DNA of 64,000 nucleotides from NCBI RefSeq assembly GCF_003334305.1, contig NZ_QOWS01000011.1, one strand, 5' to 3'. Positions 27,086 through 45,702 of this stretch are shown here, in pieces. Position 1 is the stretch's first letter, and each line of letters opens with the position of its first letter. The stretch is from Escherichia coli. GTDB lineage: Bacteria > Pseudomonadota > Gammaproteobacteria > Enterobacterales > Enterobacteriaceae. A program made the translations under genes and the position numbers. The notes under the pieces are model-generated. The model searched no databases. It worked only from the letters and a program-made list of their open reading frames with translations, and was not told where the DNA came from.

Positions 27086-27161
<76 letters not shown>

Positions 27162-27215
27162 GTTTAAAAGACATCGGCGTCAAGCGGATGTCTGGCTGAA
27201 AGGCCTGAAGAATTT

Positions 27216-27289
27216 GGCGCGTTAACAAAGCGGTTATGTAGCGGATTGCAAATCCGTCTAGTCCGGTTCGACTCCGGAACGCGCCTCCA
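27216..27289 (+). tRNA. cysT: tRNA-Cys (anticodon GCA)
   Basis: GGCGCGTTAACAAAGCGGTTATGTAGCGGATTGCAAATCCGTC...CCTCCA. Confidence 0.95.
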
Positions 27290-27301
27290 CTTTCTTCCCG
27301 A

Positions 27302-27388
27302 GCCCGGATGGTGGAATCGGTAGACACAAGGGATTTAAAATCCCTCGGCGTTCGCGCTGTGCGGGTTCAAGTCCCGCTCCGGGTACCA
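27302..27388 (+). tRNA. leuZ: tRNA-Leu (anticodon UAA), long variable arm
   Basis: GCCCGGATGGTGGAATCGGTAGACACAAGGGATTTAAAATCCCTCGGCGTTCGCGCTGTGCGGGTTCAAGTCCCGCTCCGGGTACCA. Confidence 0.95.
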
Positions 27389-31144: not shown

Positions 31145-31160
31145 TGTGATTTGCATCACA
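31145..31160. promoter_or_regulatory. CRP binding site (perfect TGTGA-N6-TCACA) upstream of azuC
   Basis: TGTGATTTGCATCACA about 85 bp upstream of the azuC ATG; a second degenerate half-site pair lies at 31173-31188. Confidence 0.55.
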
Positions 31161-31773: not shown

Positions 31774-32277
31774 TCAATGCAGCTGATGCGACACGACATT
31801 CAGAACATGTTGGTCAGTCTGCACAGGGCACATACCAGCAAGTTTCGCACTGCGCACTTCATCAAGAATGGTTTGCAGCAACAGGCCATCATGCTGCTGT
31901 TCTTTTTCCAGATCGCGCAGGAAATTGACGGTTGAATCATCATTCAGTTCTTTAGCTTCATCGGCTAACTGTGCCAGCGTGCTTGAACGTTGCTCGTATT
32001 CTTCCATCGTTTTTTGGAAAAGTTCTTCCAGTGAGTTCAGTTTTTCACCGGGAACATCAATGGCTTTAACGATGGGAGTAGCGCCGACACTCTTCATAAA
32101 GTTAAACATGCGCATCATTTGGGTCACGTTACTCTGTGCCTGGGCGCGAAGGAAAGTGGCGGTGCCGTTCAGACTCTGTTCAGAACACCAGTTACTCAGG
32201 TGAAGGTAGAGATTGGATGCGTAAAACTCGCGGTTCATTTGAGAGTTGAGTTTGAGAAGCATTCCAGCGGTTGCCAT
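31774..32277 (-). CDS. ftnB: ferritin-like protein FtnB (167 aa)
   Basis: Ferritin fold paralogous to FtnA in ORF translation. Confidence 0.85.
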
Positions 32278-33072
32278 ACCTAATATCCTTATATCCAGAA
32301 GTGGAGAGGTGCAAGATAAATCAAAACACCATAATTACTGTTTGCAGAATAATTCCTTTCTGCCGGTCCGAAATGTGATCGTGGAGTCAATTCTGACGAT
32401 GATCTGAAATAAGAATAACGTCTGAACGGGTATAAGAAAATGCTTAAATCATCAAGTTTATATATTTTTACATTTCATTGATGAAATCAATGTAACTGCA
32501 ATGAATTTTAATGATAGTGCTTTTTGTATCTTGTTGATATTAATCGGTGAATTTGAATTCATGATGAAGCAATGATTTTTTAAAACGTTTTTTCATTTTT
32601 GCGATATGGCTCTCAGTATACGTGTTCTGTTAATTAATGAACACGGTGATAATTAATGGCGAAATGAATGACGCGCTTTTTCCACATCTTTGAGTTGCGG
32701 TTATTACACCATTGCAAAAACTCAACGCCAGGTAATGTGGCCTATTGACTGGTTAAAAAAAAGACATCCAGCTGGGTACCAAAGACAACAAGGATTTCCA
32801 GGCTAATCTTATGGATTAATCTGCTGTGCACTAGACAATTTGTCAGACAAATTGGCTTTTCCTTATGTCTTTTCCCGCTAAATTTATGCACGTTCTCACT
32901 GTAATTCTGCGATGTGATATTGCTCTCCTATGGAGAATTAATTTCTCGCTAAAACTATGTCAACACAGTCACTTATCTTTTAGTTAAAAGGTAATGCTTT
33001 GTTTTCCGATTAATTTAACGAATGTCATTCGTTTTTGCCCTACACAAAACGACACTAAAGCTGGAGAGAACC

Positions 33073-35660: not shown

Positions 35661-39013
<3,353 letters not shown>

Positions 39014-39019
39014 GAGCGG

Positions 39020-39448
39020 TTAATCTCCCGTAAGTGGAACTAACAGCACATCGACCTCACTTGAGGCAATAACTCTTTTCGCCGAGCAGGATGCTCGCGA
39101 AAAGAAACTGTGATTGTGATTACCGCAAATCACCAAATCGAAATGATGTTTGTGACATACTTCCAGAATATGTTCGCTTAACTCACCGTAGGCAATAAAC
39201 GTCTTGTCAACGGGATACCCCGCATCCTGAATTAACTTATCAAGAAAGCTTTGCGTTTCTTCTTGCATCACGCTGCGTAAATCTTCAAGCATCGGCGCGG
39301 CTAATTGATTGTACATTTCCGGGTCGGAAGCGAGAGTAATTAAACTGATGTGTCCCTTTACTGGCCTGGCGATAGATACCGCTTTTGCCAGCAGTTGCTG
39401 ACTTTCCGGTGTAACCGCAACAGCGACAAGAATATTGCTATAGCTCAT
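39020..39448 (-). CDS. uspC: universal stress protein UspC (142 aa)
   Basis: UspA-family fold; convergent with otsA, stop codons 6 bp apart. Confidence 0.85.
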   Translation of the reverse strand: MSYSNILVAVAVTPESQQLLAKAVSIARPVKGHISLITLASDPEMYNQLAAPMLEDLRSVMQEETQSFLDKLIQDAGYPVDKTFIAYGELSEHILEVCHKHHFDLVICGNHNHSFFSRASCSAKRVIASSEVDVLLVPLTGD

Positions 39449-39950
39449 AACCTGTTCCTTATTCTGTGAACTTCAGGTGACATTAAAGCTTTACTCCTAA
39501 TGGAGAAACGACGCAATCCCAACTCGGTCAAACAGGTAAATATTAGTCTGATTATTAGTAAAGACAATTAATCAATCACTCCAGGTGATCATATAATTTC
39601 AAATGTAATTATAAGAAAATAGTGTACTGATTCTCCGCATTAAACAAGTGGTTAATATATGTAAAACATTTCATTAACATTAAGTTGATTGTTGCCTTTC
39701 TTTGTATTTAATTAGTTTGTTGTGCGGTAAGTGTCTGTTTAAAAATAGCTTATCTGGTATTGCATGAAAGTGATTATTTATAGCAGATGATTATTTACGG
39801 TGAGTTATTTTAACTGTGCGCAACATCCCATTTCGATTATTCCTGTTTCATTTTTGCTTGCTAGCGTAGCGAAAAACTTTTTAACAGATTGAAATACACC
39901 CAAAACAAAAGTATGACTTATACATTTATGTTAAGTAATTGAGTGTTTTG

Positions 39951-39966
39951 TGTGATCTGCATCACA
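39951..39966. promoter_or_regulatory. CRP binding site in the flhDC promoter region
   Basis: Perfect TGTGATCTGCATCACA about 270 bp upstream of the flhD ATG, consistent with a class I CRP site upstream of a long 5' UTR. Confidence 0.65.
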
Positions 39967-40227
39967 CATTATTGAAAATCGCAGCCCCCCTCCGTTGTAT
40001 GTGCGTGTAGTGACGAGTACAGTTGCGTCGATTTAGGAAAAATCTTAGATAAGTGTAAAGACCCATTTCTATTTGTAAGGACATATTAAACCAAAAAGGT
40101 GGTTCTGCTTATTGCAGCTTATCGCAACTATTCTAATGCTAATTATTTTTTACCGGGGCTTCCCGGCGACATCACGGGGTGCGGTGAAACCGCATAAAAA
40201 TAAAGTTGGTTATTCTGGGTGGGAATA

Positions 40228-40578
40228 ATGCATACCTCCGAGTTGCTGAAACACATTTATGACATCAACTTGTCATATTTACTACTTGCACAGCGTTTGA
40301 TTGTTCAGGACAAAGCGTCCGCTATGTTTCGTCTCGGCATAAATGAAGAAATGGCGACAACGTTAGCGGCACTGACTCTTCCGCAAATGGTTAAGCTGGC
40401 AGAAACCAATCAACTGGTTTGTCACTTCCGTTTTGACAGCCACCAGACGATTACTCAGTTGACGCAAGATTCCCGCGTTGACGATCTCCAGCAAATTCAT
40501 ACCGGCATCATGCTCTCAACACGCTTGCTGAATGATGTTAATCAGCCTGAAGAAGCGCTGCGCAAGAAAAGGGCCTGA
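40228..40578 (+). CDS. flhD: flagellar master regulator FlhD (116 aa from ATG at 40228; longest ORF starts 40219)
   Basis: Translation [37 protein letters not shown]... Confidence 0.9.
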
Positions 40579-40580
40579 TC

Positions 40581-41159
40581 ATGAGTGAAAAAAGCATTGT
40601 TCAGGAAGCGCGGGATATTCAGCTGGCAATGGAATTGATCACCCTGGGCGCTCGTTTGCAGATGCTGGAAAGCGAAACACAGTTAAGTCGCGGACGCCTG
40701 ATAAAACTTTATAAAGAACTGCGCGGAAGCCCACCGCCGAAAGGCATGCTGCCATTCTCAACCGACTGGTTTATGACCTGGGAACAAAACGTTCATGCTT
40801 CGATGTTCTGTAATGCATGGCAGTTTTTACTGAAAACCGGTTTGTGTAATGGCGTCGATGCGGTGATCAAAGCCTACCGTTTATACCTTGAACAGTGCCC
40901 ACAAGCAGAAGAAGGACCACTGCTGGCATTAACCCGTGCCTGGACATTGGTGCGGTTTGTTGAAAGTGGATTACTGCAACTTTCCAGCTGCAACTGCTGC
41001 GGCGGCAATTTTATTACCCACGCTCACCAGCCTGTTGGCAGCTTTGCCTGCAGCTTATGTCAACCGCCATCCCGGGCAGTAAAAAGACGTAAACTTTCCC
41101 AGAATCCTGCCGATATTATCCCACAACTGCTGGATGAACAGAGAGTACAGGCTGTTTAA
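40581..41159 (+). CDS. flhC: flagellar master regulator FlhC (192 aa)
   Basis: Zn-binding cysteines (…CNCCGGNF…, …CSLCQPP…) in ORF translation. Confidence 0.9.
41090..41116 (+). promoter_or_regulatory. sigma28 promoter inside the 3' end of flhC (motAB-cheAW promoter; MotR origin)
   Basis: TAAACTTT-N11-GCCGATAT, about 170 nt upstream of the motA start and within flhC codons. Confidence 0.7.
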
Positions 41160-41218
41160 CTGATACGGTGAGGCGCAACATTCCAGCAGCGGTAACGACG
41201 TACCGCTGCTTTTTTTTG
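41124..41218 (+). ncRNA. motR: candidate MotR sRNA (motA 5' UTR-derived, sigma28-dependent)
   Basis: Predicted TSS just downstream of the sigma28 -10 at 41109-41116; 3' end at the strong terminator 41187-41218; exact 5' end is inferred. Confidence 0.4.
41187..41218 (+). terminator. rho-independent terminator between flhC and motA
   Basis: GCAGCGGTA-ACGACG-TACCGCTGC followed by T8. Confidence 0.8.
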
Positions 41219-41285
41219 CCCCAATCGCGCGTTAACGCCTGACGACTGAACATCCTGTCATGGTCAACAGTGGAAGGATGATGTC

Positions 41286-42169
41286 GTGCTTATCTTATTA
41301 GGTTACCTGGTTGTTCTCGGTACAGTTTTCGGCGGTTATTTGATGACCGGTGGAAGCCTTGGAGCACTCTATCAACCCGCTGAACTGGTGATTATTGCCG
41401 GTGCAGGGATTGGGTCGTTTATCGTCGGCAATAATGGCAAAGCGATTAAAGGCACGCTGAAGGCGCTGCCGTTGCTGTTTCGTCGCTCCAAATACACCAA
41501 AGCAATGTATATGGATCTGCTGGCTCTGCTTTATCGGTTGATGGCGAAATCGCGGCAGATGGGGATGTTTTCGCTGGAACGTGATATTGAAAATCCCCGT
41601 GAGAGCGAGATCTTCGCCAGCTACCCACGCATCCTCGCGGATAGCGTCATGCTTGATTTTATCGTCGATTATCTGCGTCTGATTATCAGCGGTCATATGA
41701 ACACCTTCGAAATCGAAGCCCTGATGGATGAAGAGATTGAGACGCACGAAAGCGAGGCAGAAGTCCCGGCGAACAGTCTGGCGCTGGTCGGGGACTCACT
41801 TCCGGCGTTTGGTATTGTCGCGGCTGTAATGGGGGTCGTTCACGCGTTAGGTTCAGCCGATCGTCCTGCCGCCGAGCTGGGTGCGCTTATCGCACATGCG
41901 ATGGTGGGGACTTTCCTCGGCATTTTATTGGCTTACGGATTTATTTCCCCATTAGCGAGTGTTTTACGTCAGAAAAGCGCCGAAACCAGCAAAATGATGC
42001 AGTGCGTCAAAGTCACTCTGCTTTCTAATCTGAACGGTTACGCACCGCCTATCGCCGTTGAGTTTGGTCGCAAAACGCTCTATTCCAGCGAACGTCCGTC
42101 GTTTATTGAACTGGAAGAGCATGTGCGTGCGGTGAAAAATCCGCAACAACAGACGACAACCGAGGAAGC

Positions 42170-45589: not shown

Positions 45590-45615
45590 TTCTCCCGATT
45601 TCCTCAATTGAAATG

Positions 45616-45646
45616 AACCCGATGATCTGCGCATCGGGTTTTTTAT
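45616..45646 (+). terminator. rho-independent terminator after cheW
   Basis: AACCCGATG-ATCTGCG-CATCGGGTT followed by a T-run. Confidence 0.75.
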
Positions 45647-45675
45647 TTCAATTTCGCGGCGGGTGGCATCAGCAA

Positions 45676-45702
45676 TAAAGTTTCCCCCCTCCTTGCCGAT
45701 AA
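45676..45702 (+). promoter_or_regulatory. sigma28 promoter of tar-tap-cheRBYZ
   Basis: TAAAGTTT-N11-GCCGATAA, a perfect consensus match, about 30 nt upstream of the tar ATG. Confidence 0.85.

Follow-up and report, generated by a model that had tools for sequence, protein, structure and literature searches.

The 779-bp spacer between uspC and flhD in the window (the whole 64,000-nucleotide stretch of Escherichia coli DNA analyzed here) almost certainly represents the regulatory region of flhDC, the flagellar master operon, in its native and uninterrupted form, as carried by a natural E. coli isolate. Judged from the sequence, its putative cAMP-CRP site has the allele typical of the species, in which both half-sites fit the consensus. 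The region itself is well known, and what we describe is the ordinary, normal state of a well-studied promoter. The added value lies in the comparison with K-12: the CRP site seen here is the majority allele of the species, whereas the K-12 reference carries a private and apparently weaker variant.

We examined the boundaries and composition of the region. The interval 39449-40227 is exactly the uspC-flhD spacer, and the surrounding genes follow the classical E. coli arrangement (otsB, otsA, uspC on the minus strand, flhD, flhC, motA, and motB). Gene boundaries and annotation thus agree with the first-pass annotation, which had called this interval the flhDC regulatory region. The genes and the distal part of the spacer are as follows.

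39020-39448, minus strand: uspC (universal stress protein C), the divergent neighbor (ORF list; annotation of the identical region in strain AMSHJX01; MG1655 comparison).
39449-39922, unstranded: distal AT-rich upstream regulatory DNA, about 31% GC, uninterrupted (composition; six-strain alignment).
40228-40578, plus strand, ATG at 40228: flhD, 116 aa, identical to K-12 (ORF list; annotation; MG1655 comparison).
40581-41159, plus strand: flhC, 192 aa, identical to K-12 (ORF list; MG1655 comparison).

UspC differs from its K-12 counterpart by one substitution (Q62H), and strains AMSHJX01 and 005008 have the same protein (WP_000122426.1) in their annotation. The spacer has a GC content of 34.8% (50.7% for the whole window), which places it at the 0.3rd percentile and ties it for lowest among all 779-bp segments of the 64 kb; together with its collinearity with IS-less genomes, this accords with the earlier description of an uninterrupted, AT-rich region. 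The 779-bp stretch tied with it lies in another long regulatory spacer, between ftnB and araF (~32251-33030; GC about 0.348). Only two 40-codon frames were found within the uspC-flhD spacer, and its distal segment is the part most variable between phylogroups, with 35 of the 47 variable columns of a six-strain alignment located upstream of -150 (negative positions count from the flhD transcription start placed at 40030, see below).

The comparison with K-12 was made by aligning the spacers of MG1655 (NC_000913.3) and W3110 (NC_007779.1) to the window and analyzing the junctions. Once IS1 or IS5 is removed, the window spacer is collinear with K-12, with the same length (779 bp), no indels, and four SNPs, and it is collinear from end to end with IS-less E. 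coli genomes. MG1655 carries a 768-bp IS1H with an 8-bp target duplication, CATTTATG, and W3110 carries a 1195-bp IS5 at a TTAA that matches window 39931-39934. The window has the same flanking DNA and both insertion targets, each in a single copy.

39923-39930, unstranded, -107 to -100: empty target of the MG1655 IS1 insertion, CATTTATG (BLAST and junction analysis against NC_000913.3).
39931-39934, unstranded, -99 to -96: empty target of the W3110 IS5 insertion, TTAA (junction analysis against NC_007779.1).

In contrast to these IS-activated K-12 alleles, the targets in the window are empty, no IS is present, and upstream repression is not disrupted; no IS separates uspC from the flhD promoter, as one does in an IS-activated flhDC allele of the K-12 laboratory type. 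A BLAST comparison of IS1 and IS5 against the whole window (word size 7, E ≤ 10) returned chance-sized matches of at most 25 bp, none of them in the spacer, and no inverted repeats were present in the spacer. The earlier statement that the region is IS-free is therefore borne out by collinearity, BLAST, and the inverted-repeat search, and the IS inverted repeat or transposase fragment that might have contradicted it did not appear on alignment of 39449-40227. Its accompanying remark that K-12 laboratory lines carry IS here was also correct, as IS1 in MG1655 and IS5 in W3110 attest.

The IS-free state is the norm and does not distinguish this strain: among 5,426 complete E. coli genomes, about 97% have no interruption at this place. 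The spacer was matched in 5,422 of the 5,426 genomes, and at least 80% of it was found in one place in 5,272 of the 5,426. A 500-bp query (39530-40029), sized so that an IS1-sized insertion cannot be bridged, fell in 5,591 places in 5,420 genomes; hence about 171 genomes (3%) are split by an insertion, and the interrupted examples sampled include H11, a genome of K-12 size, with IS1. The same intergenic region is a hotspot outside the laboratory as well, since a uspC-IS30-flhDC insertion marks wastewater-adapted phylogroup A strains (PMC5007776), from which the window differs in lacking IS30 or ISEc33. An independent survey saw that insertion only in the wastewater-adapted clade, with 0 of 845 animal and human isolates positive (PMC5007776), which is in line with the IS-free state as the norm. 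Two matches to the flhD upstream region were on plasmid-labelled records, which may reflect contig misassignment or the capture of chromosomal fragments by plasmids.

With respect to origin, the 22 kb at positions 30000-52000 of the window showed 100.0% identity to the orangutan strain A7 (NZ_CP028767.1), with the next-best genomes at 99.6%; this marks the source of the window as a natural isolate rather than a laboratory line. The spacer alone was also 100% identical to that of the giant-panda isolate AMSHJX01. The FlhC accession of AMSHJX01 differs from that of K-12, and the FlhC of the window is the K-12 FlhC.

The promoter was placed by reference to K-12, in which the flhD start site is U00096.3 position 1,978,395 and the antisense RNA AsflhD spans +220 to +1 of the flhD transcript (1,978,175-1,978,395; PMC9600491). 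The K-12 flhD ATG is at 1,978,197, giving a 198-nt leader. Downstream of 39966, the window has neither an indel nor a SNP relative to K-12, so that the K-12 start site maps to window 40030; by this homology, flhD transcription in the source strain would start at about 40030. The following elements were located.

39951-39966, unstranded, center -71.5: predicted cAMP-CRP site TGTGATCTGCATCACA (sequence; pattern statistics; SNP; allele census; start-site position).
39995-40000, plus strand, -35 to -30: -35 element TTGTAT, 3/6 consensus (placed from the K-12 start site).
40018-40023, plus strand, -12 to -7: -10 element TACAGT, 4/6 consensus (placed from the K-12 start site).

The 16-mer TGTGATCTGCATCACA matches the core consensus TGTGA-N6-TCACA perfectly, a pattern present at two places in the 64 kb, whereas dinucleotide-preserving shuffles predict 0.04; read by eye, it agrees with TGTGATCTAGATCACA at 14 of 16 positions. 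Its reverse complement is TGTGATGCAGATCACA: the arms TGTGAT and ATCACA are symmetric, and the central CTGC is not. A perfect CRP palindrome had been claimed at 39951-39966; the site, its position, and its perfect core consensus stand, but the word palindrome does not, as only the 6+6 arms are symmetric. The center of the site (39958.5) is -71.5 from the K-12-transferred start at 40030, one of the class I positions (-61.5, -71.5, -82.5, or -92.5). By the CRP promoter classes, -71.5 would be a class I activation position. For K-12, binding of cAMP-CRP and transcription dependent on CRP are reported.

The -35 and -10 elements are separated by 17 bp, and the two hexamers have 7 of 12 consensus matches, below the threshold of the sigma-70 scan. 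In a generic sigma-70 promoter/terminator scan, the flhD promoter went undetected and the region yielded a single weak site, on the minus strand, fewer than in shuffles, which makes the scan uninformative here; the promoter was missed because its -35 element is too weak, as expected for an activator-dependent promoter. We propose that this weak sigma-70 promoter (TTGTAT, 17 bp, TACAGT) would start transcription at about 40030 in dependence on cAMP-CRP bound at 39951-39966 in class I geometry. Further upstream, some 500 bp of AT-rich DNA would be the platform for nucleoid and repressor proteins; disruption of this DNA by IS1 or IS5 in K-12 laboratory lines raises flhDC expression. Experimentally, loss of crp or cyaA abolishes swimming in K-12 W3110-LR, and loss of cyaA impairs swimming and surface motility in UTI89 (bioRxiv 10.1101/840991).

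This arrangement resembles that of class I promoters such as lac P1 (CRP at -61.5), in which one CRP dimer binds upstream of a weak -35 element and on the same helical face. Unlike at lac P1, the flhD site lies one helical turn further upstream (-71.5), within a long AT-rich multi-regulator region, and a long regulated leader comes after it. TGTGA-N6-TCACA has just one other perfect occurrence in the 64 kb, TGTGATTTGCATCACA at 31145-31160, which is identical to the flhD site at 15 of 16 positions but is upstream of an unrelated target, the gene for the 28-aa small protein AzuC. It is located between yecR and azuC, about 85 bp upstream of the 28-codon azuC ORF (ATG 31244, MKLRKILKSMFNNYCKTFKDVPPGNMFR), and presumably serves the azuC/AzuCR promoter as its CRP site.

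Beyond the promoter, identity to MG1655 is 100% in the leader, in flhD and flhC, and in the flhC-motA spacer. The first-pass annotation had proposed a long 5' UTR of about 200 nt as an sRNA target region, and this matches the 198-nt leader found here, which is identical to the sRNA-targeted leader of K-12; AsflhD was absent from that annotation. The RNA features are as follows.

40030-40227, plus strand: flhDC 5' leader, 198 nt, 100% identical to K-12 (start site transferred from U00096.3 1,978,395; K-12 alignment).
40030-40249, minus strand: AsflhD, the antisense RNA orthologous to b4839, which spans the entire leader plus the first 22 nt of flhD (MG1655 annotation 1978176-1978395 mapped onto identical sequence; PMC9600491).
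41123-41217, plus strand: sRNA MotR, across the flhC 3' end and the downstream spacer (coordinate transfer from MG1655 onto identical sequence).

Given base-for-base identity to MG1655 across 40030-40227, this long leader has the K-12 pairing and binding sites. Among its motifs are TAGGAAAAATCTTA at 40034-40047 (+5 to +18), which we take to be RcsAB-box-like, and GGA at +7 and +50, presumably CsrA sites. The flhDC leader of K-12 is repressed by ArcZ, OmrA, OmrB, OxyS, and AsflhD and activated by McaS (PMC10578931), and antisense control of flhD by AsflhD has been documented on the K-12 sequence (PMC9600491). The genes of these regulatory sRNAs are located outside the window. Because the leader, flhD, and flhC are identical to those of K-12, the sRNA, CsrA, and AsflhD biology of K-12 should carry over, and the leader would be a substrate for post-transcriptional control by ArcZ, OmrA/B, OxyS, McaS, CsrA, and AsflhD. 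More generally, the start site, CRP dependence, and sRNA control that we ascribe to the source strain are carried over from K-12 experiments and are to be read as inferred; the anatomy, the coordinates, the lack of an IS, the identity to K-12, and the allele frequencies come directly from the sequences. A permissive Rfam scan of 38500-41800 gave no matches, and neither AsflhD nor MotR was found as an Rfam family. In the whole-window Rfam scan, the gathering-score matches were MicL sRNA at 59677-59984 (+), C0465 RNA at 45609-45686 (-), and three tRNAs at 27086-27385 (+), all elsewhere; the tRNAs are annotated as Gly, Cys, and Leu in the matching genome.

We then return to the CRP site, where the window and K-12 part. 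The IS-less flhDC locus of K-12 (BW25113, C600) shares with the window the 779-bp length, the -10 and -35 elements, the start position, and identical leader, FlhD, and FlhC, but differs by four SNPs (-465, -447, -218, and -64), the last of which changes the right CRP half-site from TCACA in the window to TCACG in K-12. The last base of the site (39966, -64) is A in the window and G in K-12, whose site reads TGTGATCTGCATCACG; the allelic 30-mers across -64 are GTTTTGTGTGATCTGCATCAC[A/G]CATTATTG. The right half-site that had been called perfect is thus exactly where the window differs from K-12, a point missed at first. The two alleles were counted in the 5,426 complete genomes with three probes.

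71-mer, exact matches: A in 2,948, G in 399, of 5,426 genomes.
30-mer 39945-39974: A in 4,173, G in 405, of 5,426 genomes.
30-mer 39961-39990, which avoids nearby variable sites: A in 4,700, G in 417, of 5,426 genomes.

The A allele is therefore present in at least 87% of complete genomes and G in about 8%, chiefly K-12 derivatives; of 60 evenly sampled G carriers, roughly 80% were recognizable laboratory K-12 derivatives. Direct alignment showed A in ST131, ATCC 25922, and UPEC957C (which we take to be B2 strains) and in strain 005008, and O157:H7 and O103:H2 were exact matches to the A-allele 71-mer. SMS-3-5, presumably of phylogroup F, differs from the window at 1 of 779 bases and carries A. 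Exact matches to a 196-mer carrying A were also found in HS, REL606, BL21, and E. coli C, which we assume to be phylogroup A strains and close relatives of K-12. JP538, a natural isolate from a pig, combines the full upstream haplotype of K-12 with A, which fits G as the most recent change on that haplotype. When the K-12 haplotype with A at -64 was sought in the genome collection, JP538 was the only genome at 100% and all K-12 lines kept G; the collection thus holds no evidence of laboratory selection for G to A at -64. The G at 39812 failed as a K-12 marker, since 39812 G together with -64 A is a common natural haplotype.

On these counts, the G of K-12 is a derived minority allele that takes the site one step away from consensus, with the polarity read from the distribution within E. 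coli only. As an outgroup check, a scan of genome contigs for the 21-mer TGTGATCTGCATCACNCATTA around the CRP site gave one chance match and no Escherichia representative. The chance match (L008 2452-2472) is in GC-rich coding DNA of a Pedosphaera sp. MAG, and the Escherichia species representative may carry a variant within the 21-mer. Full-text literature searches found no paper for either 16-mer and none naming a CRP-site point mutation.

Several other readings of the region deserve consideration. The spacer is a known IS hotspot, and a former IS could have left a scar or a degraded remnant hidden in it. We reject this as vanishingly improbable: the spacer has no inverted repeats and resembles neither IS1 nor IS5, the octamer targeted by IS1, CATTTATG, is a single copy, and length and sequence are collinear with thousands of genomes, with no extra bases or duplicated target relative to other IS-free genomes. 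AT-rich intergenic DNA also yields many weak motif matches, and the region has fewer sigma-70 sites than its shuffles, so that the CRP-like motif might be a functionless chance palindrome. This, too, is very improbable, as just 0.04 matches are expected per 64 kb, the motif contains G+C rather than being AT-rich, its center is exactly -71.5 from the start site, it is kept across phylogroups while the distal spacer diverges, and both cAMP and CRP are needed for flagellar motility in K-12 and UTI89 (bioRxiv 10.1101/840991). It had further been concluded from the absence of IS that flhDC should be under native, tightly repressed control; "native control" is right, but tight repression is a K-12-centric view that the evidence does not support. 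It draws on the observations that IS-free K-12 is slow or poorly motile and that IS1 or IS5 insertion raises flhDC expression and motility (PMC11237407; bioRxiv 10.1101/840991), and the upstream DNA of the window is indeed 99.5% identical to that of K-12. Yet three IS-free UPEC strains (B2, D, and A) are fast, flagella-dependent movers (bioRxiv 10.1101/840991), and about 97% of E. coli genomes are IS-free here, which means that the IS-free state cannot equate to non-motility. In addition, the CRP site of the window is nearer to consensus than that of K-12, and motility also depends on factors outside the window, such as lrhA, clpX, and rpoS. We thus consider it unlikely that the source strain is tightly repressed and poorly motile in the manner of IS-free K-12.

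A related possibility is that A at -64 binds cAMP-CRP better than the TCACG half-site does, giving higher or less glucose-sensitive flhDC transcription; we regard this as plausible, though somewhat short of probable. The SNP falls inside the conserved TCACA half-site, only K-12 and a few relatives carry G (405 to 417 of 5,426 genomes, with about 80% of the sampled carriers being laboratory K-12), and JP538 is consistent with G as the latest change. Position 4/19 of the 22-bp CRP site is worth several-fold in affinity. Fahrner and Berg (2015) reportedly described single-base changes in the cAMP-CRP binding region that stimulate flhDC and motility in K-12. Against a sizable effect, the outermost half-site base contributes less than the G and C positions, so that any effect may be small. 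None of the laboratory K-12 genomes in the collection has gained A, and many other causes could account for the phenotypic differences between K-12 and isolates. Three IS-free UPEC strains swim with glucose present, and UTI89, the one strain tested, is still cAMP-dependent (bioRxiv 10.1101/840991), a combination that favors an effect of the -64 base, and the closer-to-consensus CRP site is a possible contributor to the motility of these strains. With similar reserve, the G of K-12 could be part of the reason that IS-free K-12 is poorly motile and readily selects IS insertions. The textbook K-12 flhDC CRP site TGTGATCTGCATCACG may then be, as a tentative proposal, a lineage-private weakened allele of a site that is typically at consensus in both half-sites in the species.

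K-12 is atypical at the flhDC locus in two ways, in that many laboratory lines carry an IS and that a minority G occupies the CRP half-site; IS-free K-12 should therefore not serve as the template for predicting how motility is controlled in natural isolates. If the G/A difference at -64 alters CRP occupancy, it would help explain the poor motility and glucose sensitivity of IS-free K-12, the motility of natural IS-free isolates, and the ready fixation of IS insertions by K-12. The -64 polymorphism is a cheaply testable candidate for part of the motility difference between K-12 and wild isolates.
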